This document shows, one piece after another, positions 19 to 27,654 of a DNA stretch of 64,000 nucleotides. Within the stretch, counting starts at the first letter, position 1. Each line of letters starts with the position of its first letter. Position numbers and translations under genes: made by a program. Source of the DNA: Cyanidioschyzon merolae (taxonomy: Eukaryota); NCBI GenBank assembly GCA_000091205.1, contig AP006497.2, one strand, 5' to 3'. The notes under the pieces are model-generated. The model saw only the letters and a program-made list of their open reading frames with translations. It was not told the DNA's origin and searched no databases.

Positions 19-1281
19 TTGGCGTTGTTTGCACGTCTTGCGAAAAACATGCCGGACTTTGCGTTCGTCACGACTGTTCATCACAAATTTAACACTCATT
101 CGCATACCGTCTGTCGTAATAAAAGTAAATCCAGGTGCAGAAAAGGCCTAGCGAACGTCGAAAGCCTACTTGACGCTCACGGAGACGGCCTTGAGCAACG
201 ACCGACGCCGCAGTCTGTATTGGCGCACAAGGCGCTCCGAGCCGGTCAAGTGGGACTCTCTTCAAGTTCTCGATCAGACTACCAACAAAAGCCGGTCGAC
301 ACGGACACACCACCGTGTGTGGTCAAGGTTTTCGGCGTTGGCGGTGGCGGGTGTAACGCGATCTCTCGTATGCTGGAAGACGGAGAGTTCCGCGGGGTGC
401 GGTTCGCTATCGCCAACACAGATCATCAGGCATTGATAGAGTTCAAGAAAAAATACATTTTATATACGCAGAACGCTGTTCTAGAAACAGTTGTTCCACT
501 GGGTGAAAGCATCTGCAGAGGCCTCGGTGCTGGGGGCAACCCCGAGGTCGGCTGCGCAGCAGCCGAAGAGTCCCACGATCGCATCGCACAGGCGATTGGT
601 GTCGGGACAGACCTCCTGTTTATTACCGCGGGCATGGGCGGCGGCACCGGCACCGGAGCCGCTCCCGTTGTTGCGCGCATTGCCAAGAGTCTCGGAGCGC
701 TCACCGTTGGGGTGGTCACCAAGCCGTTCTCATTCGAGGGCCGCCATCGAATGCAGCAGGCCTTGGATGGCGTTGCTGCGCTTCGTGAAAACGTGGACAC
801 ACTCATCGTTGTCAGTAATGACCGCCTCATGCATGTGGTTCCCAAGAATATGCCGCTCAAGAGAGCTTTTCGGGTAGCAGACGACGTTTTGAAAAATGGT
901 GTGCGCGGCATTTCCGAATTAATCACGCGACCTGGTCTCATTAATGTGGATTTCGCTGACGTTCGCTCGGTCATGGCCGAAAAAGGCTACGCGCTTCTCG
1001 GATTGGGAACAGGAAGCGGCGAGCGCCGAGCTAAGGAGGCAGCACTCGCCGCGGTGTCCTCGCCACTGCTTGATTTCCCTCTGAACAGCGCAAAAGGCGC
1101 AGTGTTCAATATTTGCGGTGGACCCGATATGACGCTCAGCGAAGTGAACCAGTGTGCGGAGGTCATATTCCAGCATCTGGATCCTGACGCGAGCATCATT
1201 TTTGGGGCAACGGTGGATCCGACGCTTGGGCCGCGCGCTGATATCTCCGTTACTGTCGTTGCGACCGGGTTTGCGTCCTAA
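19..1281 (+). CDS. ftsZ: FtsZ tubulin-like GTPase for organelle division, with a ~100 aa N-terminal presequence
   Basis: The ORF contains the FtsZ/tubulin signature GVGGGGCNA and the motifs FITAGMGGGTGTGAAPVVA and VVTKPFSFEGRHRMQQA, followed by DTLIVVSNDRL, which are collinear with bacterial FtsZ. The first ~100 aa are unrelated and rich in basic and hydroxylated residues, as expected for a transit peptide. The protein ends without the conserved C-terminal core peptide. Confidence 0.9.
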   Translation: MALFARLAKNMPDFAFVTTVHHKFNTHSHTVCRNKSKSRCRKGLANVESLLDAHGDGLEQRPTPQSVLAHKALRAGQVGLSSSSRSDYQQKPVDTDTPPCVVKVFGVGGGGCNAISRMLEDGEFRGVRFAIANTDHQALIEFKKKYILYTQNAVLETVVPLGESICRGLGAGGNPEVGCAAAEESHDRIAQAIGVGTDLLFITAGMGGGTGTGAAPVVARIAKSLGALTVGVVTKPFSFEGRHRMQQALDGVAALRENVDTLIVVSNDRLMHVVPKNMPLKRAFRVADDVLKNGVRGISELITRPGLINVDFADVRSVMAEKGYALLGLGTGSGERRAKEAALAAVSSPLLDFPLNSAKGAVFNICGGPDMTLSEVNQCAEVIFQHLDPDASIIFGATVDPTLGPRADISVTVVATGFAS

Positions 1282-1608: not shown

Positions 1609-3747
1609 TCACAGGGTCAGCGTCGTCCGCTCCGTATCCGTCTCGATCAAACCGTCGTCCTCAAATGCCGCCTGACCTAGCAGATTGGTCTCGGTCAAGT
1701 GATCCAGCTCGGGAATGTCGGCCATGCCGCGTGAAACCCGGATTCGGTGGAGCATGTCCACAATCTTCGGATGCAGATGTTTCAACGCAAGCTCACGTCG
1801 TGGATCGTCGCGCTCCCAGCTGCGAAAAAATGGACCAGGAACCCGCAGTATTCCATTCTCAATATCATCCAAACAGTAGTCAAGGGTGAATACCCGATAG
1901 AAGTACTCTCCAAAGAAGCGATTATCCCGAAGGCCGCTTCGCACTGGCGCCCCGTGGACCATTCTAACGTGGATGAACATCACATTGTAGAGAACGACCC
2001 AAAATCTGATTTTCGCGTGATCATCTGTTAGCGTTCGCGGATCCGCTGACTGCAACTGCGACGCCGCGAACAAATACTCCTCGCTCGGCAGCTTTCGATG
2101 CTGCATGCATTCGCGGCGAATACGTTGCAGCAGCGATTCAACCAGCTCAATGGCACTTGCCAGAATCGGGTTCCCGGTAAAGTCGGAAGCAAGGTTCAAG
2201 ACCCGTCGCGCAGGCTGTCGCCATTTCTCGTGTGCAGCAAAGAGCTCTTTCGCTCCGGCGTCCTGGAGTGCCTGGGGCTCGCGTGTTGCCCGGCGATGGG
2301 CATGGGTGCCGCGCGGCCACCACGAGTTTATCGCTCGGGTCACCCGGCGAAAGCCCTCGGCCGCGTGTCCTGCACTAGAGGCGGCATCGAAAGACAAAAA
2401 ATCTCGCTTTTCGAATGCATCGGGCCCCAGAAGCTTACTCGCATCTACACGGTGCAAATGACGAAAGTCGATGCCTTTGAAGAAAGGATGCAACTTGAGT
2501 GCACGCATCGTAATGCGTTGGGCTGGATCCTTGTTGAGAAGCTTCTCCACAAGGTCTCGACCCGAACTTGTCGGAAGACATGACTTGGGGAACGCAACGT
2601 CGTCTTTCAAGATACTTTGAAAGAGTAAGTAATCTGTTTCGCCACGGAACGGGAGCTCGCCGCCACACAGCATCTGGTATAGGACGACACCGAGCGCCCA
2701 GAGATCGCTCTCGAACCCGCCTCCTGGTCGTTCTCTTCGGAGCTGCTCTGGTGCTAGATAAGCGAAAGTACCAACAAAGGAATCGTAACGATGTTTGTCC
2801 TGCGGCCGCGGAGACCGCCCCGCCAGTTCGTCATCCGGTGTTTTGCCCAAAATGGCGGCAACGCCGAAGTCTGCAAGCTTACAGTGGCCCTTGTTCCCAA
2901 TGAGAATATTGTGTGGCTTCAAATCGCGATGGACGATGCCGTTTTTGTGAATCAAATCGACCGCGGACACAATCTCTGCAAAGTAGAAGCGCGCTGCATC
3001 AAGGCTCAAGGCGCCGACATGATTCCCACCGCTCGGAGCCGCCCCGTTCGGCTCACGCTTCTGGAATCTGTCTCGATGCGACGGATGCGGCGTTTCGCTT
3101 GAAGCGCGCCTACGAGCGAGCAGGCGCGCCAGGTCACCGTGTGGGCAAAGCTCTATAACCATATAGAGAAAGTTCTCATCCTCCAGAATAGCTTTCAGCT
3201 GCACGATGTTTGGATGGCCCAGTCCCACTTGTAAACAAATCTGCTCTGTTCGCAGGGGGAGCACCTGCTCATTCTGCTCTGCCAAAGCTTTCGAGATAAC
3301 TTTCACCGCATACTCCCTCCCGGTCGGAAGGTAAGTAGCTCGCAGCACCCGCGAGCATGCACCCTCTCCTATCAGTTCCGTCGCTTTGAAATCAGCGCGC
3401 GATGCACCCTGTAGCTCAAGAGGCGGAACGCCAGGCAGCAGGGCAATGAAATGACGGCGAGCATTGCGCTCGCCGTCGGTATGCCAGGAGTGGCTGTCCG
3501 CTACTGGGGGGCTTGTTTTGCTCGAGACTTCCGGGACCGGCGGCTGATGCGGTAGCATTTGGTCTGTCTCTTTCTCAGATTCGTCCCGAGAATCTTCGAA
3601 GCACACAACAGGCTCCGGTTTAGCGGATGTGTCCACAGGGAGACCGGCCGCGCAGCCACCCTTGATGCCTCGCTCGAGTTCGGCAAACCAACTTTCATCC
3701 ACTGCCCAGGAGGGCGTCCGGCGCTCCCGGCGCCACGTACTCATCAT
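1609..3747 (-). CDS. PDK1-like Ser/Thr protein kinase with a C-terminal DUF547 domain
   Basis: The kinase motifs GEGACSRV...YAVKVISK, HRDLKPHNILI, DFG, SFVGTFAYLAPE and DLWALGVVLYQ are present. The C-terminal lobe (DYLLFQSILKDDVAFPK...RDLVEKLLNKDPAQRI) closely parallels PDK1. The C-terminal ~200 aa contain the DUF547 signature (IRFWVVLYNVMFIHVRMVHGAP ... FFGEYFYRV ... DDIENGILR). Confidence 0.8.
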   Translation of the reverse strand: MMSTWRRERRTPSWAVDESWFAELERGIKGGCAAGLPVDTSAKPEPVVCFEDSRDESEKETDQMLPHQPPVPEVSSKTSPPVADSHSWHTDGERNARRHFIALLPGVPPLELQGASRADFKATELIGEGACSRVLRATYLPTGREYAVKVISKALAEQNEQVLPLRTEQICLQVGLGHPNIVQLKAILEDENFLYMVIELCPHGDLARLLARRRASSETPHPSHRDRFQKREPNGAAPSGGNHVGALSLDAARFYFAEIVSAVDLIHKNGIVHRDLKPHNILIGNKGHCKLADFGVAAILGKTPDDELAGRSPRPQDKHRYDSFVGTFAYLAPEQLRRERPGGGFESDLWALGVVLYQMLCGGELPFRGETDYLLFQSILKDDVAFPKSCLPTSSGRDLVEKLLNKDPAQRITMRALKLHPFFKGIDFRHLHRVDASKLLGPDAFEKRDFLSFDAASSAGHAAEGFRRVTRAINSWWPRGTHAHRRATREPQALQDAGAKELFAAHEKWRQPARRVLNLASDFTGNPILASAIELVESLLQRIRRECMQHRKLPSEEYLFAASQLQSADPRTLTDDHAKIRFWVVLYNVMFIHVRMVHGAPVRSGLRDNRFFGEYFYRVFTLDYCLDDIENGILRVPGPFFRSWERDDPRRELALKHLHPKIVDMLHRIRVSRGMADIPELDHLTETNLLGQAAFEDDGLIETDTERTTLTL

Positions 3748-4951: not shown

Positions 4952-7122
4952 CTGACACCGATTGATGGAGCACCGTGGTCGTTAGCCAGGTGCATGGGAA
5001 ATTCGGTCTCGATGGATCCAGGTATTACTGGATTCCCTCTGCATTCTCGGTATTTGCACCGTTCCACAGCCTTGCTCCACGCGTGGTCCGAATGTCCTCT
5101 CTGCTGCGCTGATTTTTTCATCGCAAGTCATCTGCGTATCGGAGCCATGCCACAGTGCGTCCGAAACGATGCCTGCGGACGCTCCTGGGGCACGACATCC
5201 TTCCGCATGTCGATCGAGCCGCTCAAGTCCAGGTTGAGCGTGTGTTTGCGCGCACGGTTGCTCCTGGGGCACTCCACAGGGAGCAGCTCGCATGCTAGTG
5301 CCTCGCATTCGGACGTTCAGGCATGTTTCCGCACTCCGTACCGTGCATTTGTCTCTATTTGACGCCCCTGTGCTCTGCTTGTTTCGGCGTACGGTTGTAT
5401 GCATGATGAGCGTAGATGCCGTTCAGGAGGCATCGACGAGCCTCGAAGAGAATCGATTCGTGAACGTGTGTGACGCTCTCGTCGACGGAGCAGGAGCGCA
5501 GCCTTTGCGCGTGAGCGCACGTCCAGCGTCGTGCGCTGCTACCAGACGACCCGAGATGTTAGTCGTGATCGTGGCGAACATGTTGAACGGGGTGGCGAGT
5601 GCGCGCTTCTTCCCGCCGACCAGCGGAAGCTGCTTGGGAGCCCCAGCTCAACCGCGTGGTCCCGTGTCCTCCTGCCGAAAATCCTTCTCATGAGCCGTGT
5701 GCATACTCGTGTATGTACTGGTGCACAGCACCCCTTGTATCTGTACCCGCTTTTCTGGGCCTCTGCGGCGGCGGTACATTGCGCAAAAGATGCACTCTAC
5801 AGGGACGCACAGACGGTTGTTGCGGAGAGTTTGGTACTCTTTGGCACTGGCGCTGTCGGTGTTCCTGTCGCTGAGCAGCATGGCAGTGCATCGAAGGATG
5901 CTGGAAAGCCCGTGTGTGTGTGTGTGTGTGTGCGTCGCTGGTCCGCCGATTAGGCCGCATTGCATCCGCGGTGCCGAACATCACGCTTCATGTCGCATGC
6001 GGGTTTGGTCGAGCAGGTCTAGGCCAGTGTGGACATCCGGCACACTTGCACCCGGAATGCCGTCGAACTGCTTGCTCGACGAGGCGCTTCCGTGCAAGGA
6101 CAGCGAAACGAGTATTTCTCGAGTGAAGCGTTACACGCTCATTCATGACGCTCTGTGTCGTTGCGCGTGTCGGATACGAACGACTCGCCTACTGATGCGT
6201 GATCCTCGAAGCGGTGTAGAAGCATTAGGAAGGCGGATTTGGCCCGATGGAACCAGGGAGCATCGGCTAGCACGTGGCGCACCTGAACGCCTATGCCAGC
6301 TGCGTACGCCTTGACCACGTATCAGAGATGGAAAGCGACGCTGCCCCTGAACAGGACAGACGCGTACGGGAAGCAGAAGCCAGGAAGCGTGCATCGACGA
6401 AGAGTGCGCTGTTGAGCGATCCAGTCTGGTTGGTGATTCACAGGAGACCGCATCCTTGGATGGTCGTTCGCGTTGATGTCGACGGCATGCTCGTTTGACT
6501 GTTCTGAGCAGACCGAGGCTTGCCCCTGTTTGCGTATCCATTGTGGAAGTCGACCAAGTCTTCTTGCGTGGAGCCTCGTCGAGCGAGACGATCTCTGGCC
6601 CCTGCCACGCTCCGCCCTCGCGTTCCAGCATGACGCCGATGGTGTGGTATGCATCGTGCGTCTGTCTCCCCGAGAAGCGTCCTTTCTTTCTTTCGTGCTT
6701 CGTCCATGGTGTCTCTTCGTCACTGTTCGTATCAACGGCACGCGGAATTCGGAAGCTCCGGCTTCTCTGAAAGTACTTCCTGCACAACGCGTAGAATGGG
6801 ATGGATTGACGAGTACTGGGTTGCATAGGCAGCGTTTTCATCAATTTTGTTTACGGGTTATGACATTCAGAGCAGGGACTTGCACGGTATTTGGTCCAGT
6901 GGCTATCGCAGATTGACTGCATTGGACAAGCACCGCCGTTCTTTTTCGCGAGCTTGCACTCGCAGCATCACGGCATTCCGTAACCTTTCTCCAGAGCGCA
7001 GGATACAATCCTCTGTATTGAATCGCTGTGCGAGAAACAAAAACAATACGGGTGTGCTGGCGCAGCTTCTCCAGAATTCACTGGTCTGAGCGTAACGCCC
7101 GAAAGGTGTTGGAAGCAGCGAG
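4952..7122. repeat. Copy A of a ~2.17 kb dispersed direct repeat, non-coding, containing a (GT)n microsatellite at ~5914-5936
   Basis: It is near-identical to 18771..20939, with an offset of ~13,817-13,819 bp. The six-frame ORFs inside the two copies are the same except for scattered substitutions in every frame. The first base pairs form the stop codon of ORF 4767..4955. Confidence 0.85.
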
Positions 7123-7438: not shown

Positions 7439-8881
7439 GTGCTCTCGTTCCGGTTCCGTAGTCGCTTACGGGATATGCCTGTGGGCAGCGGGGTAGAACC
7501 CCAGGCGGCTGCGTTTGAAAGTCTGCAGCCGCCCTGGCTGGGCTCGAAACCTCCACATACACAATCTACGCGAGATGACTTAGAAGCTGTTATGACAGAA
7601 CAGAAACTGGAGTTGGAGAGCGCCCAGAGACAACGTTTAGCTCGTTTGGAGGAGCGAGCGCGAAACCAGGATAAGGTTATCGCTCGGTTACAGAGAGAGC
7701 TCTATGAAGCTCGAAGGCTTATTGAGGAAAGAAAAACCAGTCCAACACTGGTGGACGCAATCCGGGTACCCGCAGGTGTTCAAACGACAACGTCCAGCGC
7801 CGGCAAACAACACGACGTCGCATCGCTCGCGCTGCAACTTGAGGCGGCCAAAGAGGCACTCGCAGCTGAGCAGAGAAATAGGCAGGAAACTGAGAGGCTC
7901 AGTGAACGATTGGCGAAATCTTTTGACTCGTATCTGCAGGAGATGGAGCGACGTCAGCGCGCTCAGGAGCAGGAATACCGTCGCCAGGAGATGCACCTTC
8001 GAGGAGAGCTTCGGCGTTGCAACATGGCAAAGGCGCACCTGGAGGAGCAGCTCGAGCTGGAAAAAGAGTCACTCCGTGCGGCCCAGCAGGAACTCCGTGG
8101 GCTGCGCTCCAGGGTGGAAGGCACCATAGAGGACATGAAGGCTCGCCAGCTGCAACTGGAAGAGGGAAAGCGGGAGCTCGAGCGAAATCTGAATAAACTC
8201 TCCGATCAGCTTGAGAAAGAGCGCACTCTCTTTCAAAGCGAGCGCGAACGTTTTCAACAGGCGTCCCGTGAGGCGTACACGATGCTGAGCGAATCCGCCG
8301 CCCGGAGTGATGAACTCGAAAAACGACTCGCTGAGACTCAAGCGCAAATGCAACAGCTTCGAATCGAATTCGGCAGTCAGTTGCAGGCTGAGGTAGCACG
8401 CTCTGCTGCACTTGAGCGCGACCTTGACAGATATCGCCAGCGAAATCGACAGTTCGAAGACCGTATTGACGAGCTACTTACCGTGAATCAGAAACAGGCG
8501 GAGGAACGCGCCTCCCTTCGGGCGGAAATACGACGACTGACCGACGAACTGGTACGTGTTCAAGCACGCAGCACATTCGCTGAACGACGCCTTCAAGATC
8601 TGCTTCTGGATGCATCAAGCCCGCAAACGGAGGCAAACCTGCTCCCGGGAGATACAGGTGACGTCCCGACGCCATTGTCGGGCAGCATCATGAAAAAAAC
8701 GTCTCCCTCAAGCGTCCACAAGCTTCAGAACATCGAATCGTCCCTTCGTGGCATTTCCGAAGAAAATGCAGCGTTCCGAGCCAAGGTTCGCGCCTATCTG
8801 GACAAGCGAACTCCCGAGCCGCGCAGTCGTTCACTCGCTGATGATACGCATACAAGATCTCAGAAGGGAACGCCTCCATAG
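7439..8881 (+). CDS. Coiled-coil protein (E/R/Q/L-rich heptad-like sequence), function unknown
   Basis: This 480 aa ORF is dominated by charged heptad-like sequence such as LQLEEGKRELERNLNKLSDQLEKERTLFQSERERFQQ, and no enzymatic motif is present. Confidence 0.5.
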   Translation: MLSFRFRSRLRDMPVGSGVEPQAAAFESLQPPWLGSKPPHTQSTRDDLEAVMTEQKLELESAQRQRLARLEERARNQDKVIARLQRELYEARRLIEERKTSPTLVDAIRVPAGVQTTTSSAGKQHDVASLALQLEAAKEALAAEQRNRQETERLSERLAKSFDSYLQEMERRQRAQEQEYRRQEMHLRGELRRCNMAKAHLEEQLELEKESLRAAQQELRGLRSRVEGTIEDMKARQLQLEEGKRELERNLNKLSDQLEKERTLFQSERERFQQASREAYTMLSESAARSDELEKRLAETQAQMQQLRIEFGSQLQAEVARSAALERDLDRYRQRNRQFEDRIDELLTVNQKQAEERASLRAEIRRLTDELVRVQARSTFAERRLQDLLLDASSPQTEANLLPGDTGDVPTPLSGSIMKKTSPSSVHKLQNIESSLRGISEENAAFRAKVRAYLDKRTPEPRSRSLADDTHTRSQKGTPP

Positions 8882-9481: not shown

Positions 9482-12235
9482 TCACGTCTCTGGAGATGTG
9501 TCCGGCAGGAGCGCAGATGCCCGCAGGCGCCACACAGCTCTGTTGCCATCACCGGATTCGCTCAGATAGGCGACAAGCTTGAGCACTGCTCGGAACTCGG
9601 CAGCGTTGATGCCGCGTACGCGCAAGGAGGACTTAAAGGCGCCCGCAAGCTCCGCAGTCGTCGCCCCGGGCCCGCGTCGCTGTAAATACGACGTAATCTC
9701 GTGCACAAGAGACTGCAGCTTTCGAACCTGCTCCTCATCGTCATCGACCGCTTCGCGTTCGTGCAGACACTGAAGCAGTGCCTGTGACGCAAGTTTCGAT
9801 GAAGGTGCTCGGTTCGCTGTCGCTGTCGAGCAGAGCCACGGCGCCTGTGTCGTTGGTTCAGGTAGCGGGGTTGTCGGCGTCTGGTGGTTCAGTGAACGAC
9901 GCAGTGCCGCCAGCGCTCGTTGGGCGACTCGATCGGCCTCGGCCTGGAGCACCTGTCGATCGAATGCGGTCCGGGGATGCTTTCCTGATACCTCCAGCGT
10001 GGAGTCGTGGTTGAAGACTGCCGCCACTTGATCAAGCGCACGGGCATCGTTGCCGTCCAGTAACTGTCGCATGATCCGCATCTCCGCTGTTAGCTGTTCA
10101 TTCTGCTTGGCATCTAGCTTACAATGATTATCGGCATCAGCATCATCACCAGCTGCTGCTGCGACGCTCACCGGAGCGAGCGACTCCCGTGCAGTCGCCT
10201 GAACCTGAACAAAATCCTCGTCTGTAGCGTCTTCATGCAGCGTCAGAAGCTCGTGTATATCTTTTCGTTTGAAAAATCGGCGCTTGCGAGGATCATGCAA
10301 AACCTTTTCAGAGAGAAACGTTTTGAAGATCTGGCGGTGGTATATCTTCTCCTCGATGGTGCCGCGCGTCAACAGGCGATAGACGACAACTGGGCGCTCC
10401 TGGCCGATGCGCCAGGCCCGTTCGCGGGCCTGGGTATCGGACGCCGGGTTCCAGTCGGGATCGTAGATAATCACGCGATCTGCTCCGATTAGGTTGAGAC
10501 CGAGCCCACCCACGCGAGTGGTCAACAGGAAGGCGAAAATCGAGCTATCGTGATTGAAGCGGTCTACCAACTCGGCTCGAAGTGCAACATTCGTCTCACC
10601 GTCCATGCGCAAGTACGTGAACTGCCCCTTGTTCAGCGTTTTCTCGAGCAGAGTGAGCATGCTACGCGTCTGCGAAAAGATCAGCGCTCGATGATTCGTC
10701 TCGCGGAGCTGGTGCAGCAGGCGATCCAAAGCGAGGAGCTTACCCGAAGTACTCTGGCGCAGGAGCTTCCTCTCTGAGCCGGATACATGGAGATCAGCAG
10801 CCGCGAGCCGCGGATGGTTACAAATCTTGCGCAGGGTCGTGATGATTGGCAGTAAGTTCAGCTGTCCATCTGCGGCTCGTTCGACGTCAATGGCATTAAG
10901 GTAGTTCTGGTAGATCCGTCGCTGCTCGGGTGTCAGTCTGCAGAGGAGAACATGTTCCTGTTTTTGTGGTAACTGGAGTGCAACGTCCCTTTTCAAGCGT
11001 CGCAAAAGATAGGGCGCAATCAGATCTCGCAGTGTCGATGCACAGCGATACGCGATGTGAACCTGGGCGGGCGTTGCGTTCGCGAAACCGCCTAGAGATA
11101 TGGGTATGCTGAACTCCTCCTCAAAGGACTGCAATGTTCCGAGCCTGCCAGGGTAAATAAAATCAAAGAGACTCCAGAGCTCACAAAGACGGTTTTGCAA
11201 GGGTGCACCGGTCATCAGAATGCGATGTACCGTGTTGAGTTGTTTGCATACTCGTGTGACCTCTGCTTCGGGATTCCGAATGCGATGGCCCTCATCCAGA
11301 ATTACATAGTCCCAACGTCGGCTGGTAAACCAACTCGCATGAATGCGAAGGTGTTCGTAATTCGTAATGAATATAACTTGCGATGGACACTGATTCGGCT
11401 GGAGCGCGGACTCCCCGATACCCAGCACGGCGTGCAGGACGCGCACTTGCAGTCGAGGCCACCAGGTTTCCAATTCTCGTCGCCACTGGTCCAGAACAGT
11501 GACAGGTGCCACCACTAGAATCGGGCCTTTCAAGAGTCCCGAGTAGTCGAGCGCTGCGAGAAAAGCGATGATCTGAACAGTCTTTCCTAACCCCATTTCA
11601 TCGCCCAGAATCCCACCGGTACCCTGTACATGAAGCGACCAGAGCCAAACAAGCCCCTCCTTTTGGTACGGAAACAAACGCTCATACAGAGACCGCGGAA
11701 GCCAAAGTCCAGGTGCAAGTTCCATAGCTGCCTCAGTTCCTACGGCATGACCTGCTTCGAGCGTACGCGCAAGCTGCTGCGAAGCTAGTGCGTCCGGCGA
11801 GCCCGTTGGTGTAAACGAAACTTCTCCGTTGCGATAACCGTCGGTGCTCGCAAGATCTCCGAGTTCATGAACTTGTTCAGCTTCAAGCTCAACCAGCTCG
11901 CTTCTAAGTTGTTCCAAGCGGTTGTGCAGGTAGTGGAGTCGTCGCCGCGCCCGGCCGCTAGCCGCAACGCTGCCCGCGTCACAGGCGTCGTCGCTGCGCT
12001 GAGCCCGCTGCGACGACGTGCCCGCTCCGTGCTCGCTTCCGAGCACCTGCTGGAGTAGCTCATTCGTTTCTTGCTCTAGCACAAGGATTTGCTGTCGTGT
12101 TTGCTCGATGAGATCGCGATGTGCTTTCTGCACAATGTCAACAACGAGTTTTCCCTCGTCCACCACCTGCACTGCAGGATCAGTGACCAGTGCATCGCTC
12201 CTCGCGACGTACGACGTTGAATTCGGGGCAGACAT
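9482..12235 (-). CDS. SNF2-family DNA-dependent ATPase, ERCC6/CSB/Rad26-like
   Basis: Motifs LFPYQKEGLVWLWSLHVQGTGGILGDEMGLGKTVQIIAFLAAL and DYVILDEGHRIRNPEAEVT are present. So are ILMTGAPLQNRLCELWSLFDFIYPGRLGTLQSFEEEFSIPI and IIYDPDWNPASDTQARERAWRIGQ. These are nearly collinear with the human ERCC6 helicase core. Confidence 0.85.
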   Translation of the reverse strand: MSAPNSTSYVARSDALVTDPAVQVVDEGKLVVDIVQKAHRDLIEQTRQQILVLEQETNELLQQVLGSEHGAGTSSQRAQRSDDACDAGSVAASGRARRRLHYLHNRLEQLRSELVELEAEQVHELGDLASTDGYRNGEVSFTPTGSPDALASQQLARTLEAGHAVGTEAAMELAPGLWLPRSLYERLFPYQKEGLVWLWSLHVQGTGGILGDEMGLGKTVQIIAFLAALDYSGLLKGPILVVAPVTVLDQWRRELETWWPRLQVRVLHAVLGIGESALQPNQCPSQVIFITNYEHLRIHASWFTSRRWDYVILDEGHRIRNPEAEVTRVCKQLNTVHRILMTGAPLQNRLCELWSLFDFIYPGRLGTLQSFEEEFSIPISLGGFANATPAQVHIAYRCASTLRDLIAPYLLRRLKRDVALQLPQKQEHVLLCRLTPEQRRIYQNYLNAIDVERAADGQLNLLPIITTLRKICNHPRLAAADLHVSGSERKLLRQSTSGKLLALDRLLHQLRETNHRALIFSQTRSMLTLLEKTLNKGQFTYLRMDGETNVALRAELVDRFNHDSSIFAFLLTTRVGGLGLNLIGADRVIIYDPDWNPASDTQARERAWRIGQERPVVVYRLLTRGTIEEKIYHRQIFKTFLSEKVLHDPRKRRFFKRKDIHELLTLHEDATDEDFVQVQATARESLAPVSVAAAAGDDADADNHCKLDAKQNEQLTAEMRIMRQLLDGNDARALDQVAAVFNHDSTLEVSGKHPRTAFDRQVLQAEADRVAQRALAALRRSLNHQTPTTPLPEPTTQAPWLCSTATANRAPSSKLASQALLQCLHEREAVDDDEEQVRKLQSLVHEITSYLQRRGPGATTAELAGAFKSSLRVRGINAAEFRAVLKLVAYLSESGDGNRAVWRLRASALLPDTSPET

Positions 12236-16274: not shown

Positions 16275-18773
16275 GTGCTTTCCTTCTTGAGCGCTAACAT
16301 TTTCGGAGCACGACGCACGCACAAACGGCGATCTGGAGGCTACGCAAGCTCTAGAACGGGAAACCGCTATGGAATGACGAATTCTGACCACATTAGTCTC
16401 TTTAACTTCGCTGGAAGACAAGTTCCCACGCTTTCATGCTTTTTAGGTCCGCGCGAGCGCATGTCCCAGAATCAGCGACCCCAGCGGACTGCTTTCGTTG
16501 CGTCATACGCGGGTCCGCGTGGAAGCGCTGCAGCTGTGCCGCAGCGTAGAAACGCTGAAGAACGAATACTTGTGTGCCGGATCAAGCAAGCGAGTTGCAC
16601 CGTGAATACGCATTTGCATCGAAAAGCGCCTACCCAGCTTTTGTCTGTGGAGAGCGCGAGATGGCCCGGCGGCATGCTATTCAGCAAGAGGCAACAGCGT
16701 CATCAACGACAACGAAAACGGGCGCTGGCGCTGTGCGCTGAGGCGCCACACCCCGGGAAGCCACAGCTCTTGGTACAGCGAGCCGCAGCGTTCGCTGGAC
16801 AGGCCGCTGTCCTTGGCCTGCTCTGCTATCTCCAGTTTCTTCTAGGCAATGGATCCTTCTCCATTATGGACAACACGGAACCCAAATTCGCTGTATGCGC
16901 AAAGAACATGCTTCGAACGGGGAACTGGCTCATTCCGCAATGGAATGGACGAGTTCGCTTTGATAAGCCTCCGCTTGTTTACTGGCTCCAGGCTGTCGCA
17001 TATCGTCTGTTTGGATTTACGGAAAGCGCCACGCGACTGCCGACTGCGCTAGCAGCTTGCGCGGTAACCCTCATGGTGTACTGTTTCAGCGTAGGCGCCT
17101 CCAGCGACAACATGAGAAAGCGGCAATTCAAGGGCCTGATTTCCGCCGCAGCATTCGCCTGCAGCCTCTATGCAGTCGGCTGGGCCCGAAGTGGTGTCTC
17201 CGATATGGTCTTGTGTGCATGCATCACAGCGTGTTTGGGGTGTTTCGCAGCCGCCTATATCTCGGAAACAAAAGCGACCCGTTTCGCCTGGTACATTGGT
17301 ATGTTTGCAGCTGCGGCATTGGCACTGCTCACGAAGGGCCCCCTGGGCGTTGCGCTCCCAGCCCTGATCGTGAACGTCTTCCTCGTGCTCGTCGGTCAAT
17401 GGCGTGCGGTTGTCCTTCACGAGATTCCCTGGACTCGAGGTGTTCTCCTCGCCGCTGCAATCGGTCTTCCGTGGTACATGCTCATTATCCGTGCATACGG
17501 GCTAACCTATATCAAGGCCTTCTTCGGCTATCATAATCTGGCCCGCCTGACAAGCGCTGTGAATGCGCATAGCGGCCCCTGGTACTACTATCTGGCGTGT
17601 CTTCTACTGGGGTTCCTTCCCTGGGTCGCAGCGTTACCGGTTGCACTTGTCGCTGCCTATCGTCGCTCCGGCTTCGCCGCAGCGTCGAGAAAGTCGTCGC
17701 GACGCGAGCAAATCCCCTTATTCATCACCACCTGGTTTCTGCTTACAATTTCGTTCTTCTCCTGCATCCGCACGAAGCTCTTCAGTTACATACTGCCTGC
17801 TATACCGGCTGCTGCTCTGCTCATTGGCGAATACTTCTCAGGCGTGGATCCGCGCAAGCCAGCAGACTGTGGGCGCGCAGAGCGTCTGATCACTGCGCTG
17901 GCAGTCATCATAATCATGGCTGCAATGGCGCTGCTCTGCCTGCGACTCGAATCACTCATTATCGGCAGCAGCGGAGGAGCTGGCGACCCCTGGATTCTGC
18001 GGGTCTGTCTCGAACAGGTGCGAGCTCAGAAGCTGGTCTGGCGAGGCGTTGCGCCCTGGGTGCTCGGTATCGTCGGCGTTTTGGTGACCTGTTCCATCAG
18101 CCGCTGGTATCGTTATCTGCCCACAGCTATGGCGGCAAGTTTTATGCTCTTTCAATGCATGTTCCTATTGCCAGCGATACGTGTCTGGGACCGCGCCCAC
18201 CAGCAGCCGCTTCGCGAACTAGCCCAGTGCGTTCGCAGCCTGCGTGAGCGAAGCGAGGCCGACCTCCGCACCGACCGGGTCTACATGATGGTATTTGGAT
18301 GGTGTGATGGTGTCCCCGAAGGCCAGCCTTCGGTTGTTTGGTACAGCGACTTTGATGGATGGCATTTTGCTGAGCGTCCCGAGGAGACGCTCGCAGACAT
18401 TGTGCTCATGGCACGACGCGATGATCGTGCCGAACGTGTTTGCCTCGTTTCCAGGCCAGCCGCGGACGTTGCACCAAACTACGCCAGTCTATGGTCGGCT
18501 TGCTGCGATGGAATCGCTGAAGACGACCTCCGCGACGCTAAAGATGTGCTGATCCTGGCGGATACATCGATCTGGCGGACGATTCCCGGGCAGCTGCCGG
18601 ATACCAAGGTCATCGAGCGACGAGGTCCATTTGCGCTCTATCGCGTACCGCCACGAGCGGCACTGCGAGCAGTACAAGCGATACGAAATCGTGGTGGTAC
18701 ATACGCTTTCCAACGTGATCGTCTTGACTTGAAGAGCATGGAGCCAGCTTCGAATATGAAGGAGTATCCTTGA
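16275..18773 (+). CDS. GT-C glycosyltransferase of the ArnT/PMT (GT83/GT39-like) family, polytopic membrane protein with a ~170 aa N-terminal extension
   Basis: The first periplasmic-loop signature DNTEPKFAVCAKNMLRTGNWLIPQWNGRVRFDKPPLVYWLQAVAYRLFGFTE matches the ArnT pattern D/E...R...ML.SG.W..P..NG..Y..KPPL.YWL. It is followed by about 11 hydrophobic helices and a soluble C-terminal domain. Confidence 0.7.
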   Translation: MLSFLSANIFGARRTHKRRSGGYASSRTGNRYGMTNSDHISLFNFAGRQVPTLSCFLGPRERMSQNQRPQRTAFVASYAGPRGSAAAVPQRRNAEERILVCRIKQASCTVNTHLHRKAPTQLLSVESARWPGGMLFSKRQQRHQRQRKRALALCAEAPHPGKPQLLVQRAAAFAGQAAVLGLLCYLQFLLGNGSFSIMDNTEPKFAVCAKNMLRTGNWLIPQWNGRVRFDKPPLVYWLQAVAYRLFGFTESATRLPTALAACAVTLMVYCFSVGASSDNMRKRQFKGLISAAAFACSLYAVGWARSGVSDMVLCACITACLGCFAAAYISETKATRFAWYIGMFAAAALALLTKGPLGVALPALIVNVFLVLVGQWRAVVLHEIPWTRGVLLAAAIGLPWYMLIIRAYGLTYIKAFFGYHNLARLTSAVNAHSGPWYYYLACLLLGFLPWVAALPVALVAAYRRSGFAAASRKSSRREQIPLFITTWFLLTISFFSCIRTKLFSYILPAIPAAALLIGEYFSGVDPRKPADCGRAERLITALAVIIIMAAMALLCLRLESLIIGSSGGAGDPWILRVCLEQVRAQKLVWRGVAPWVLGIVGVLVTCSISRWYRYLPTAMAASFMLFQCMFLLPAIRVWDRAHQQPLRELAQCVRSLRERSEADLRTDRVYMMVFGWCDGVPEGQPSVVWYSDFDGWHFAERPEETLADIVLMARRDDRAERVCLVSRPAADVAPNYASLWSACCDGIAEDDLRDAKDVLILADTSIWRTIPGQLPDTKVIERRGPFALYRVPPRAALRAVQAIRNRGGTYAFQRDRLDLKSMEPASNMKEYP

Positions 18774-23385: not shown

Positions 23386-23478
23386 GGACATTCGGTGCCA
23401 TCTCTAAAGTTGGACATCCGATGCCATCTCTAAAGTTGGACACTCGGTGCCATCTCTAAAGTTGGACATACGATGCCA
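23386..23478. repeat. 26-bp tandem repeat, ~3.5 units (ggacatNcgRtgccatctctaaagtt), in the HisF-ThrRS divergent intergenic region
   Basis: Read directly from the sequence: units at 23386, 23412 and 23438, plus a partial unit at 23464. Each unit contains ATGCCATCTCTAAAG. The last partial unit supplies the ATG of ORF 23473. Confidence 0.9.
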
Positions 23479-25719
23479 GCGACGGTTCCCAGGCCCCGGC
23501 TTGCACTGCGACATCTCGTCGACGTCGTCGACTGTACCGGGGATGATCGTCAACGGCATTGCGCTCTGGGCGTGCTGCTGCGTCTCTCCTGCCTCAGGTG
23601 TTGTTGTTGTTCTTGTTGTTGTCAGCGGCGTTGGCGGCTCGGCTCTGAGGTGCTTTCAAACCAGTATCCATTGTCAAGCCAAGCTATGCTTACACGTGCA
23701 GAAAACAGGGGTTTTGTGCGTTTATTGTTCATCTCACGTCTGGGTCTACTGCGCACGCCGTCGACCTTTGGACGCTGGGCAACAGCGTGCGCCCCCCAGC
23801 GGCGTGTACGTGTCGAACAAACAGCGAGGCCGCTTGCTCATTGCTGCGGCGTCCGAGGGCTGCGGTCGTGCTCAGCGGCATCGACACCGCGTACCAGTCA
23901 ACAAGCGAACGCAAGTCAGAAAGCACCTGTCGCTGCTGGTGACGCAACGGGGACCTCTCGACTCGACGCACTGCCGACGAACGAGACGAATCCAAGGCTG
24001 TTGCGCATTCGCCATACCTGTGCTCACGTTATGGCTATGGCCGTACAGAGAATATTCCCCGAAGCCAAAGTGACTATTGGGCCTTGGATAGATAACGGCT
24101 TTTACTATGACTTCGATATCAGTCACCCATTCTCACCGCAAGACCTCGAGCGCATCAAACAGGTCATGGATGAGATTATTCTAGCGGATTTGCCGCTAAA
24201 ATGCGTGGCGCTCTCACGCGAAGAGGCGCGCGCCCGCGTCGAAGCACTCGGTGAGCCGTATAAGCTGGAGATATTGGATTCGATCACCGAGGAACCAATC
24301 ACGATCTATTCCGTTGGAGACGACTGGTGGGACCTCTGTGCCGGGCCACACGTTGCCAGGACCGGCGAGATCAACCCGGAAGCGGTGCAGCTGGAGGGTG
24401 TTGCTGGCGCCTACTGGCGCGGCGACGAGTCGAAACCGATGCTCCAACGCATCTACGGAACCGCTTGGGAGACGCCTGAACAGCTTCAAGAGTATCTACG
24501 TCGCCGTGAGGAGGCCAAACGCCGAGATCATCGCGTGCTCGGAGAGCGGCTTGGTTTATTCTCCATTCAGCAAGATTTGGCTGGACCAGGGCTTGTTTTC
24601 TGGCACCCGAAAGGAGCCTTTATTAGGAATATGATCGAGACTTTCTGGAAGGATGCGCATCTTGCGGACGGCTATCAATTGCTGTACACTCCGCATCTTT
24701 CCGACCGCGAATTGTTCCGCGTTTCCGGTCATGTGGACTTTTACGCGGAGAGCATGTTCAAACCGATTGAGTGCGAATCTCGAGAGATTATAGCCAAGCC
24801 AATGAACTGTCCACATCATGTTCTGGTGTACAAGAGCAAATTACGCTCGTATCGAGAGCTTCCGGTGCGCTTCGCCGAGTTGGGTACTGTCTACAGGTAC
24901 GAGCGATCGGGCACGTTGCACGGTCTCATGCGCGTTCGTGGGTTCACTCAAGATGACGCGCATATTTTCTGCACGTTTGATCAGCTGCGATCCGAAATCA
25001 AGCGAGTCCTAGACCTCACTGAAACAATACTATCGCGTTTTGGATTCCGTGACTATCAGGTGCATTTATCGACCCGACCCAAAGTTTCCATTGGTAGTGA
25101 AGAGGCCTGGTCGCGTTCCGAGCAGGCGCTGCGCCTTGCGCTCGAGGACAAGGGATGGTCTTTCACCGTTGATGAAGGTGAAGGGGCCTTCTACGGAGCG
25201 AAGATCGATTTGAAAGTTCGTGACGCACTCGGTCGTTTATGGCAGTGCTCTACCATCCAGTGCGACTTCAATTTACCCGAACGATTCAATTTAGAATACG
25301 TAGCGAGTGATGGTTCACGCGAGCGACCTGTCATGGTGCATCGCGCGATATTCGGCTCGCTGGAACGCTTTTTTGGGATTCTGATCGAGAATAGCGCCGG
25401 GGACTTTCCGTTGTGGCTCGCGCCAATACAGCTCCGGCTGCTACCTGTCTCTGACAAATTCTTACCGTTCTGCGAGCAGGTGGTCGACAAGGCCCGTCGA
25501 CGTCGTCTCAGAGCGGAGATCGATCTGTCAGCGAATCGCCTCGGCAAAAAAGTTCTCAACGCAGAAGAGGAGCACATTCCCTACATGGCCATTGTCGGTA
25601 AGCGCGAGGTTGAATCGGATGCACTGTCGATGCGTTCTAGACACAAAGGCGATCTGGGATCTGTACCAGTAGACGAAATCCTCGCCCGTCTGGAATGTGA
25701 AGCGTCTATGCAGCTCTGA
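23473..25719 (+). CDS. thrS: Threonyl-tRNA synthetase, bacterial/organellar type; the conserved part runs from ~23990 and the N-terminus is uncertain
   Basis: The editing-domain HxxxH motif HTCAHVMAMAV and the class II motifs are present. MNCPHHVLVYKSKLRSYRELPVRFAELGTVYRYERSGTLHGLMRVRGFTQDDAHIFC is nearly identical to E. coli ThrRS motif 2/3. The first ~170 aa of the ORF are low-complexity (CCCCSCCC) with no TGS domain. Confidence 0.85.
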   Translation: MPATVPRPRLALRHLVDVVDCTGDDRQRHCALGVLLRLSCLRCCCCSCCCQRRWRLGSEVLSNQYPLSSQAMLTRAENRGFVRLLFISRLGLLRTPSTFGRWATACAPQRRVRVEQTARPLAHCCGVRGLRSCSAASTPRTSQQANASQKAPVAAGDATGTSRLDALPTNETNPRLLRIRHTCAHVMAMAVQRIFPEAKVTIGPWIDNGFYYDFDISHPFSPQDLERIKQVMDEIILADLPLKCVALSREEARARVEALGEPYKLEILDSITEEPITIYSVGDDWWDLCAGPHVARTGEINPEAVQLEGVAGAYWRGDESKPMLQRIYGTAWETPEQLQEYLRRREEAKRRDHRVLGERLGLFSIQQDLAGPGLVFWHPKGAFIRNMIETFWKDAHLADGYQLLYTPHLSDRELFRVSGHVDFYAESMFKPIECESREIIAKPMNCPHHVLVYKSKLRSYRELPVRFAELGTVYRYERSGTLHGLMRVRGFTQDDAHIFCTFDQLRSEIKRVLDLTETILSRFGFRDYQVHLSTRPKVSIGSEEAWSRSEQALRLALEDKGWSFTVDEGEGAFYGAKIDLKVRDALGRLWQCSTIQCDFNLPERFNLEYVASDGSRERPVMVHRAIFGSLERFFGILIENSAGDFPLWLAPIQLRLLPVSDKFLPFCEQVVDKARRRRLRAEIDLSANRLGKKVLNAEEEHIPYMAIVGKREVESDALSMRSRHKGDLGSVPVDEILARLECEASMQL

Positions 25720-25746: not shown

Positions 25747-27654
25747 CTAACCACCGAAACCGCGACGACTCGCGGGCGTGCCTGCCCGCTGACTTGCCGC
25801 ATGCGCGCCGCCGCCGCCGCCGCTGCTGCTACTGCGTCGTCGCCGCATCCGATCAGCGTACGGCGTGAAGCAGCGAAAAATCTCCCGCACCCGGGGTTCC
25901 AGCGTCGCATTAGCAGTACCCGATCCACCGTAACTGGGCACCCTCTGACCAATCAGGGCTTTCATAGACGCTAAAGTCTGTGCAAGCACCGCGTCGTCGG
26001 CGAATCCGAGGGCATCAGGGTGCGGCAGCGCTGCGCGAACCCACAAGATGCCCGTCACCGTGGAGCGTCCCCGCACATAAACCACAATCGTGTGCTCAGG
26101 GCCTGGTAATCGACCGTTAGCGCTTTCACCAGAAGCGTCCACTCCCGAGCACACGTACTGATACATCTCGTCCGAGGCATGGAGATCCCCAAACCAGAGC
26201 AAAGTTGTACTCCCGAAAGAGAACTGATGCGCAGCCTGATCGCTGTAGACTTGCCGAGCGCCACGCATATTGCGCGCCGCCATGCGTGCCGTACGGCATG
26301 CGTGTTCGAGGCCGCAGGCGCGTCGACGCCCAGCGACGGGATCCGGGAAGCACAGCGCATCGCCAGCGACGTACACGTCCGAGGCAGCTGCCAGCTCTCG
26401 ATTGCAAACGATGCCACCAAGGATTGCATCGATTTCCAGGTGTTGCACCTGTTTGAGCACTGCAACGCCGCCGGGTGGACGCGCTTTATTCAAGACGGTA
26501 AATCGATCGGTGCGAAACGAGACAGCAACGCTACGATCGTAGGTTCGGACGAAGAACAACTCTAGATCGCTCTGGGCGGCAGCTGTATCGGTGCGCTCCT
26601 GAATATAGCGCGGTTCTGCGTACGGGATAAGTTCGATGCCCAGATCGCGGAGGCTTTGTGCGACTTGTTTGGCAACTTCTTTGGGTAGGAATTCTCCGAG
26701 CGGCTCCGACTCGGGGAACAGAATGGTCACTGAATGGAGACCGCCGCTCCAAGTTCGGATTTCGGATGCGAGCACACAGGCATACCAGTCCAGTCCCAGC
26801 AGGGTGTAGTGCCTCGGTTCGGTGCATTCGCGCCAATCACAGCCCGCATGAAGTTGGCCGGCGGGTATAAAGTAGCGGCTCGCATTCGGACCCATGACGC
26901 AGCTGTCTGGGCAACTGTTTTCTTGGCCGGTTGCAAGCAGAAGTCGTCCGTAACGAATGGGATCGACGCCCTCGAGTGTAACGGTCTTCTGTTCAACGTC
27001 TAGGGCCTGTAATCGATGGCCTTCGTGGAATACCCGGTGGTGGTTTACCCATCGTTTACACTGTTCTTGCGTCCAGGATGGATCGTAGCTCTGGTCCGTG
27101 ACCACCAGAAGCGAGGCGTCTGCGTCACACCGAGCAAGTTCTGCCGCTGCCTCGTGGGCCGCTGGTCCACCGCCAATAATCACATAGTCGTAGGAAGAAC
27201 CAATAGATGCTGATGCTTTGTGCGAGAGAGACTTGACTTTCGAGTTTTCGGCCGCCTCGCAAGAGGTTTCGTTCGCTATTGCGCTGGAGACGGAAAACCA
27301 AGGTGCCTTGAGGGCGCACCAAACGCGAAACTGATTCCAAAAGTGAAATCGTCGTCTATAGTTGCAACGTTCGTGGGGCTCCTTATCCAAACGATCCGCT
27401 GCACTTGGGTGCCACAAGCCTGCACCCAGCTGGTTCGTCAGACTGTCGCTATCCCCTGCGAAAGCGAAGAGTCCGAGCCCCGCAGTCAGGCCACTCGCCA
27501 GGCAAGTCTTGAGCAACCCACGACGTGCTGAACAAGTTCGCAGACCAGAACAGGAACGAGACAGCAGCTCGAAACAGTACAGTGCTCTTCCCCAGCTCAT
27601 GAACCAGCTGCTCAGTGCGCTGAACCCGCCGTTCCAACTGTATAGTGAGAGCAC
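25747..27654 (-). CDS. FAD/NAD(P)-binding pyridine nucleotide-disulfide oxidoreductase family protein (AIF/ferredoxin-reductase-like)
   Basis: A Rossmann dinucleotide motif YDYVIIGGGPAAHEAAAEL is followed by a second nucleotide-binding region and a DVYVAGDA motif. The C-terminal tail is low-complexity and Gly/Ser-rich, with a GCC-repeat DNA tract at ~25800-25830. Confidence 0.65.
   Translation of the reverse strand: MLSLYSWNGGFSALSSWFMSWGRALYCFELLSRSCSGLRTCSARRGLLKTCLASGLTAGLGLFAFAGDSDSLTNQLGAGLWHPSAADRLDKEPHERCNYRRRFHFWNQFRVWCALKAPWFSVSSAIANETSCEAAENSKVKSLSHKASASIGSSYDYVIIGGGPAAHEAAAELARCDADASLLVVTDQSYDPSWTQEQCKRWVNHHRVFHEGHRLQALDVEQKTVTLEGVDPIRYGRLLLATGQENSCPDSCVMGPNASRYFIPAGQLHAGCDWRECTEPRHYTLLGLDWYACVLASEIRTWSGGLHSVTILFPESEPLGEFLPKEVAKQVAQSLRDLGIELIPYAEPRYIQERTDTAAAQSDLELFFVRTYDRSVAVSFRTDRFTVLNKARPPGGVAVLKQVQHLEIDAILGGIVCNRELAAASDVYVAGDALCFPDPVAGRRRACGLEHACRTARMAARNMRGARQVYSDQAAHQFSFGSTTLLWFGDLHASDEMYQYVCSGVDASGESANGRLPGPEHTIVVYVRGRSTVTGILWVRAALPHPDALGFADDAVLAQTLASMKALIGQRVPSYGGSGTANATLEPRVREIFRCFTPYADRMRRRRSSSSGGGGGAHAASQRAGTPASRRGFGG

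Follow-up and report, generated by a model that had tools for sequence, protein, structure and literature searches.

In nearly all eukaryotes the AGC kinases are activated by an upstream kinase, PDK1. The canonical enzymes (human PDPK1; Arabidopsis PDK1 and PDK2) have a C-terminal PH domain, while PDK1 orthologues lacking it are well documented; these include yeast Pkh1 and Pkh2 and the PpPDK1 of Physcomitrella, which rescues yeast pkh1 pkh2 (10.1101/752725), the PDK1 of Ostreococcus and many other green-lineage orthologues (PMC4143559), and the Toxoplasma PDK1 orthologue SPARK (PMC11321763). Here we describe a further member of the family, encoded by a gene in a 64,000-nucleotide stretch of the Cyanidioschyzon merolae contig AP006497.2 (assembly GCA_000091205.1; the whole stretch is called the window below), in which a truncated module of the DUF547 family lies C-terminal to the kinase. 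Like the PH-less enzymes just listed it is a PDK1-family kinase lacking a PH domain, and since such orthologues are so well documented the loss of that domain is unsurprising in itself; unlike them it carries a DUF547 module, which is reported for none of them in the three papers cited. The protein is thus a known kinase in a form particular to one lineage. Its combination of PDK1 and a truncated DUF547 is apparently undescribed, although the gene itself is already annotated.

The gene product is identical at 712 of 712 residues to the C. merolae 10D protein BAM81467.1 (XP_005537503.1; UniRef M1VEV3), which carries the annotation "probable 3-phosphoinositide-dependent protein kinase"; this protein belongs to a 902,900-bp record, and the window is therefore nuclear DNA. 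The original prediction, made from the nucleotide letters, had described a PDK1-like kinase with a DUF547 domain replacing the PH domain and had spoken of other stramenopile or algal proteins; the source is the red alga C. merolae 10D, not a stramenopile. All of the motifs on which that prediction drew can be located in the protein, those of the kinase being YAVKVISK (residues 146-153), SFVGTFAYLAPE (323-334), DYLLFQSILKDDVAFPK (372-388) and RDLVEKLLNKDPAQRI (397-412), and those of the C-terminal region FWVVLYNVMFIHV (582-594), GAP (599-601) and ENGILR (630-635). The start region, M..TWRRERRTP.WA, is kept in five orthologues. Pfam recognizes a Pkinase domain at residues 121-423 (E 1.1e-56) and DUF547 (PF04784) at residues 574-669, the latter being listed already in the precomputed Pfam annotation of the protein collection. 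The absence of a PH domain, as predicted, is upheld by the same scan, which finds no PH family in the protein even at E <= 1; it gives no match to a DEP or Glutaredoxin domain either, and a scan against NCBIfam returns just generic bacterial kinase families, each far under its cut-off.

The affinity of the kinase domain to PDK1 is evident from the ranking of its matches. When all PDB sequences were searched with phmmer, the best 21 were human PDK1 kinase domains (156-163 bits), followed by the Candida albicans PDK1 orthologue Pkh2 (4c0t, 146 bits), and the matches outside PDK1 were lower (Akt-like, 137 bits; PKC, 132; Greatwall, 126; Akt, 125; CaMKII, 122). The best non-orthologous match in 5.8 billion proteins, P0006, is a protein of 490 amino acids consisting of a Pkinase domain and a PDK1-type PH_3 domain. 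On these grounds the PDK1-like character proposed for the kinase holds.

Comparison of the individual residues, in an alignment that adds human PDK1 and P0006 to the six orthologues, suggests an active-looking PDK1-family kinase with an altered docking site. All six orthologues conserve the catalytic Lys (K149), the Glu of helix alpha-C (E168) and the Asp residues of HRD and DFG, and the T-loop residue in SFVGT is a Ser here as in the canonical enzymes. For the docking site we compared the positions which we take, from structural work on human PDK1, to form the PIF pocket (K115, I118, I119, V124, V127 and L155) and the adjoining phosphate site (K76, R131, T148 and Q150). The pocket gives a mixed picture, in which its main hydrophobic positions may be largely kept: K115 is retained in all six orthologues, V124 is retained as Val or Ile in Cyanidioschyzon and Cyanidiococcus and is Glu in Galdieria, and L155 is retained except for a Val in P0005. 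V127 is conservatively replaced by Leu, I118 by Ala, and I119 is variable (Glu, His, Val or Arg). Beside the pocket, the residues of the phosphate-binding sub-site are substituted in every one of the six orthologues (R131Q, T148I or T148L, and Q150E in the human numbering), while the canonical P0006 retains R, T and Q there; the docking pocket has therefore probably lost its recognition of a hydrophobic motif that is phosphorylated. The cyanidiophyte protein also differs from canonical PDK1 in an N-terminal extension of about 100 residues and in two lineage-specific inserts in the kinase domain, at residues 215-246 and 301-321. About 25 residues past the kinase domain lies the sequence FLSFD (residues 450-454), whose F-x-x-F-D pattern is reminiscent of a PIF-type hydrophobic motif bearing an acidic residue; only Cyanidioschyzon and Cyanidiococcus conserve it, Cyanidium having GFSLD and Galdieria no counterpart.

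In the C-terminal region, the Pfam match to PF04784 reaches 41.9 bits where the gathering score is 27 (E 1.2e-10) and falls within residues ~520-690, where the domain had been predicted to lie. Homology starts about 75 residues ahead of this match, where a VLN element that hardly varies leads into a helix (residues ~499-555). In a 51-sequence alignment, the near-invariant residues of the family up to the first DPR (LQ, FW..YN....H, Y, E.G.LR and DPR) are all present in the window protein, as L565, L573, F582, Y587, N588, H593, Y617, E630, G632, L634, R635 and D648-P649-R650. The hallmark DPRxHFAL.C(G/A)..SCPP has decayed to HPKIVDMLHRIRVSRGM, and none of the six orthologues keeps either of its cysteines; the cyanidiophyte form of the motif,.LH.(I/V)RVSRG(M/F), is itself invariant across the same six. 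From SRG(M/F) the orthologous proteins run on for only 1-36 residues, depending on the species, and canonical DUF547 relatives for ~100-110 more, including the conserved LP.IF.WY..DF and Y.W.LN. The module is thus the first two thirds of a canonical DUF547, with the last ~100 residues absent. The missing third does not lie downstream, where all three frames hold stops past the stop codon, and tblastn with canonical C-terminal segments found no match in the 327 bp before the neighbouring FtsZ gene or elsewhere in the window. We had considered that the third might be hidden behind the stop codon or an intron, and reject this on the evidence of those stops and the empty tblastn search. The truncation is real and is common to six independently assembled genomes. 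Of the "clear DUF547" of the original prediction there remains a domain that scores above the gathering threshold and stands C-terminal to the kinase; it is clear in neither extent nor sequence, being truncated at its C-terminus, degenerate and without the Cys motif. In the same way, the module can be said to replace the PH domain in that it occupies the same C-terminal position, but in a positional sense only, PH-less PDK1 orthologues being common.

The layout is present in every sampled cyanidiophyte lineage. The same architecture is found in Cyanidioschyzon, Cyanidiococcus (KAF6004232.1), Cyanidium (KAK4538054.1) and Galdieria yellowstonensis (KAK4527059.1), which answers the question, posed with the original prediction, of whether other algal proteins share it; in each of the six species or strains, whose assemblies are independent, the gene is one uninterrupted open reading frame (ORF), as it is in many metagenome contigs. 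A profile of the module (A2), which combines the C-terminal parts of five orthologues, was searched exhaustively against 1.84 billion (1.84e9) representatives and gave 682 matches at E <= 0.001. Just two 50%-identity clusters reached E <= 1e-30, the cyanidiophyte cluster P0004 and P0140, whose 90% cluster holds the G. yellowstonensis protein; P0140 has a Pkinase domain and a truncated C-terminal DUF547, as in the window protein. The remaining matches that were scanned are all canonical DUF547 proteins, and the search yielded no PDK1 with a DUF547-type module from outside the cyanidiophytes. Text searches of the literature (for DUF547, for PF04784 or IPR006869, for the accessions, and for Cyanidioschyzon together with PDK1) returned no paper on this protein, on its architecture or on the function of DUF547.

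Conservation along the protein is uneven. The kinase segments of C. merolae are 53-61% identical to those of Galdieria and 72-82% to those of Cyanidium, and the corresponding figures for the DUF547 module (residues 499-676) are 40-48% and 65-66%, with a range of 40-86% across the whole class. In the linker (residues 441-498) the identities are 3% and 36%, in the C-terminal tail 0% and 3%, and in the kinase insert at residues 215-246 3% and 31%. Purifying selection on the module is accordingly similar in strength to that acting on the kinase, and the module is almost as strongly constrained.

The linker between the two domains contains one conserved element, the motif F(R)RVT(R)AINSWWPR, in which V469, T470, A472, N474, W476, W477, P478 and R479 are invariant in five orthologues and which could serve as a docking or autoregulatory element. 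The Galdieria version is looser (LKTVGKTIGSIFS). AlphaFold2 modelling of residues 440-712, with the 51-sequence alignment, gave a mean per-residue confidence (pLDDT) of 77.5, a predicted template-modelling score (pTM) of 0.69 and 134 residues above 90; this confidence may be optimistic, as a truncated domain was modelled with full-length homologues. The core of the module, at about residues 500-680, is predicted to be mostly helical with a small beta-hairpin. In a model of the full-length protein (pTM 0.58) the pLDDT is above 90 for the kinase, ~90 for residues 530-680 of the module and below 50 for residues 449-529, of which residues 499-529 were covered by six sequences only and reach 73-79 in the fragment model. 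The protein looks like two independent domains joined by a flexible linker of about 60-80 residues, and the independent folding of the DUF547 module, raised as a question in the original prediction, is borne out by the AlphaFold2 prediction, with a core pLDDT above 90. Among solved structures none was found to resemble the predicted module, and no lipid-binding fold was recognized in it.

DUF547 is a widespread family whose partner domains are almost all signalling domains. Among the best 149 relatives, 69 are multidomain proteins, and in these 69 the partners counted were DEP (40), Glutaredoxin (22), GH15 (5), RasGAP (4), RGS (4), protein kinase (3), RapGAP (1) and PH (1). The pairing with glutaredoxin, which the original prediction had noted for plants, is therefore well founded: it occurs in 22 of the 69, and the plant class IV glutaredoxins have the order GRX-DEP-DUF547, where GRX stands for glutaredoxin, and are biochemically uncharacterized (PMC13621322). 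PTEN proteins with DUF547 are found in Entamoeba (10.1101/2021.11.29.470399). RasGAP proteins with two tandem DUF547 modules occur in Mantamonas, Pygsuia and Capsaspora (P0141, P0142, P0143 and P0147), that is, in CRuMs, breviates and filastereans; their presence in such distant protists points to an apparently old association of DUF547 with small-GTPase signalling.

Kinases other than PDK1 have also been joined to DUF547 within one polypeptide. P0185 combines DUF547 with a TKL/CTR1-like kinase, P0160 is a CAMK/CIPK-like kinase followed by DEP and DUF547, and the Cymbomonas protein CYMTET_24218 (P0356) is NEK-DEP-DUF547, an order of kinase, DEP and DUF547 that recurs in P0359 of Chlorokybus. 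In contrast to the cyanidiophyte protein, the classified kinases of these fusions belong to other groups (NEK, CAMK and TKL), their DUF547 is complete, and most have an intervening DEP domain. Because the kinase groups differ, the fusions are independent; the PDK1 fusion is then the fourth such event and the sole one that combines a truncated module with the lack of a DEP domain.

As to the origin of the module, C. merolae has a paralogue, P0302 ("similar to guanine nucleotide exchange factor"), which consists of DEP and a complete DUF547 (119.5 bits, profile positions 4-125 of 125), shares 35% identity with the PDK1 module across 110 residues, and belongs to a family found throughout red algae. 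The module profile finds its best single-domain match, at 74.4 bits, in P0144, the Cyanidiales orthologue of P0302. From the similarity to P0302 and the top score of P0144, duplication of the DUF547 part of a DEP-DUF547 gene is the most economical origin, and derivation from the DUF547 part of a red-algal DEP-DUF547 gene seems the most probable, the signal being weak. The red-algal DEP-DUF547 proteins and the class IV glutaredoxins share with the cyanidiophyte kinase a homologous module that includes the N-terminal VLN-helix extension outside the Pfam model; they differ from it in that they lack a kinase, have a complete DUF547 with the C-terminal third, and carry a DEP domain, in some cases together with glutaredoxin. 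P0144 is 89% identical to a Cyanidiococcus protein and is encoded at 3001-4497 of L001, a JGI metagenome contig of 675,726 bp with compact, intron-less-looking genes. The contig is chromosome-sized, which means that public metagenome assemblies contain near-complete chromosomes of cyanidiophytes.

The reading we favour, and consider reasonably probable, is that of a PDK1-family AGC kinase in which the truncated DUF547 is a non-catalytic regulatory or targeting stand-in for the PH domain. The kinase would have the upstream T-loop kinase role expected of canonical PDK1, whose catalytic domain is the nearest of those solved, and would serve the few AGC kinases of a very small kinome (S6K-like, SGK/YPK-like and FPK1-like). 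In C. merolae 61 kinase domains have been counted, and the candidate AGC substrates among them are the S6K/RSK-like CMER004738, the SGK/AKT/YPK-like CMER000756 and the FPK1-like CMER004759 (10.1101/2020.01.27.920793 and its supplement). Such substrates would probably be docked through a PIF pocket in which the phosphorylated hydrophobic motif is no longer recognized, and the module would take over the job of the PH domain by setting where or when PDK1 meets them. It would most likely do so by binding a partner protein or a small ligand and not by holding acidic lipids electrostatically, which we prefer because the cyanidiophyte module core has a net charge of -3 to 0 and the canonical DUF547 cores are basic, with a median of +4 and a pI of 9.6.

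Several points weigh against this reading or narrow it. The role given to the module comes from guilt by association and is probably best called plausible, and the near-invariant polar residues that it retains could mean that an ancestral activity has been kept, which speaks against a purely non-catalytic role. A form of the proposal in which the module binds acidic lipids through a basic surface is unsupported, the core being neutral to acidic. The AlphaFold2 models give no sign of docking of the INSWWPR motif or of the module onto the kinase, the linker having a pLDDT below 50. On the side of the kinase, the placement in the PDK1 family is by score ranking and not by a phylogenetic tree, and the replacement of the fourth phosphate-site position, K76, by Gly, Asn or Ser adjoins an alignment gap, so that its equivalence is less certain than that of the other three. 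The absence of a PH domain is a statement on this protein and not on whole cyanidiophyte genomes.

Among the alternatives the one that survives best, though we think it unlikely, is that the module still works as the ancestral DUF547 does, as a small-molecule or redox sensor making PDK1 activity signal-dependent. The retention of all the near-invariant family residues up to the DPR and the strong purifying selection on the module are in keeping with this, and the frequent fusion of DUF547 with glutaredoxin suggests a link to thiol or redox chemistry; both C...SCPP cysteines and the whole last third are nevertheless gone in six of six orthologues, which argues against a chemistry identical to that of canonical DUF547, and the titles and abstracts of the DUF547 literature hold no functional or biochemical study of the domain from which such an activity might be taken over.

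Somewhat more doubtful still is a membrane or lipid anchor, in which the module would directly replace the PH domain and bring PDK1 to the membrane. It does occupy the position of that domain, and DUF547 co-occurs with the membrane-proximal DEP, RGS, RasGAP, RapGAP and PH domains as well as with PTEN; moreover the Arabidopsis protein UCHIGAWA, composed of a MIP1 leucine zipper and DUF547, is a peripheral protein in a polar plasma-membrane domain without having a transmembrane helix (10.64898/2026.08.17.745151). In most relatives, however, the membrane association could be explained by the separate DEP domain, and the near-neutral or acidic charge of the cyanidiophyte module, against the basic canonical cores, and the failure to recognize a lipid-binding fold in the predicted structure both count against an anchor. 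That the C-terminal region is a functionless, decaying remnant of a fusion, or an artefact of the gene model or the assembly, might be suspected from the low Pfam score (41.9 bits against 119.5 for the paralogue P0302), the truncation and the lost hallmark motif, but is very improbable and is in effect excluded by the conservation of the module at a level comparable to the kinase (40-48% identity to Galdieria, against 0-3% in the flanking linker and tail), the invariance of the degenerate motif LH.(I/V)RVSRG itself, and the uninterrupted ORF in six independent assemblies and many metagenome contigs.

A broader proposal goes beyond our preferred stand-in for the PH domain. Since DUF547 is repeatedly fused to PDK1, NEK, CAMK, TKL, RasGAP, RapGAP, RGS, PTEN and DEP, it may be a general eukaryotic signalling module that steers membrane-proximal enzymes, of which a minimal cyanidiophyte version, lacking the cysteines and the C-terminal third, would have taken over the job of the PH domain of PDK1. 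We put this forward tentatively, as an idea with the odds against it.

The features of the PDK1 gene and of its surroundings are collected in Table 1. The gene is convergent with an FtsZ gene, and the two stop codons are 327 bp apart; the ORF listed for FtsZ begins at a TTG near the edge of the window, which may not be its true start. The long gene-poor stretch that separates the PDK1 gene from the next clear one contains a short (GT/CA)n dinucleotide repeat, which appears in the translations of overlapping ORFs as runs of VCVCVCVCV and THTHTHTH. Further on, one ORF encodes a coiled-coil-like protein rich in Glu, Arg, Leu and Gln, and another has the architecture of an LSD1-type histone demethylase with an added ARID DNA-binding domain. 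The C. merolae genome is nearly intron-free, and the housekeeping neighbours, each a single long ORF, fit this.

Table 1. Features of the PDK1 gene and of neighbouring genes in the window (residue numbers refer to the PDK1 protein)
Feature	Position	Strand	Remarks
Complete single-exon PDK1 gene	1609..3747	(-)	ATG start, 712 codons + stop, ORF uninterrupted (ORF list)
N-terminal extension, residues 1-100	3448..3747	(-)	Predicted disordered (pLDDT 30-45); 20-29% identity among orthologues
AGC/PDK1-type protein kinase domain, residues 121-423	2479..3387	(-)	Pfam Pkinase; pLDDT >90
Lineage-specific low-complexity insert in C-lobe, residues 215-246	3010..3105	(-)	3-38% identity; pLDDT 54-58; alignment with human PDK1 and P0006
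T-loop Ser323 in SFVGTFAY (human PDK1 Ser241 equivalent)	2779..2781	(-)	Alignment; Ser/Thr in 6/6 orthologues
Flexible linker, residues 441-498	2254..2427	(-)	pLDDT <50 in both models; 3-72% identity
FLSFD, residues 450-454	2386-2400	(-)	
Linker motif, residues 465-479	2311-2355	(-)	Conserved in 5/6 orthologues
DUF547-homologous module, residues 499-676	1720..2253	(-)	VLN-helix extension + Pfam core, ending in degenerate motif; profile search, alignment, AlphaFold2 core pLDDT >90
Pfam PF04784 match, residues 574-669	1741..2028	(-)	Profile positions 5-98 of 125
Degenerate motif HPKIVDMLHRIRVSRGMA, residues 659-676	1720..1773	(-)	Counterpart of DPRIHFAL.C(G/A)..SCPP; both Cys lost (compared with 14 canonical modules)
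Unconserved tail, residues 677-712 + stop	1609..1719	(-)	0-31% identity
FtsZ gene	19-1281	(+)	Tubulin/FtsZ GTPase + FtsZ_C
(GT/CA)n dinucleotide repeat	~5850-5900		
480-aa ORF	7439-8881	(+)	No Pfam match at E <= 1e-5
SNF2-family ATPase	9482-12235	(-)	Single long ORF
PMT_2 glycosyltransferase	16275-18773	(+)	Single long ORF
Threonyl-tRNA synthetase	23473-25719	(+)	Single long ORF
Pyridine-nucleotide-disulphide oxidoreductase	25747-27654	(-)	Single long ORF
H+-pyrophosphatase	35470-37722	(-)	Single long ORF
714-aa ORF	40511-42655	(-)	ARID + SWIRM + flavin amine-oxidase
Half-size ABC transporter	44162-46282	(-)	Single long ORF
DEAD-box helicase	49436-52054	(+)	Single long ORF

The evidence presented here covers the architecture and its conservation, not the mechanism. 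As such it bears on how PDK1 is regulated in lineages that are without phosphatidylinositol 3,4,5-trisphosphate signalling or without the PH domain, such as plants, algae and apicomplexans: in the cyanidiophytes the PH domain is replaced in position by another conserved, folded module, which has been kept across an ancient red-algal class. Homologous recombination is efficient in C. merolae, and together with the tiny kinome this makes the alga tractable for studying both PH-independent regulation of PDK1 and the function of DUF547. If DUF547 were indeed a general signalling module, the cyanidiophyte kinase would offer the first experimental handle on its function and on PH-independent PDK1 regulation.

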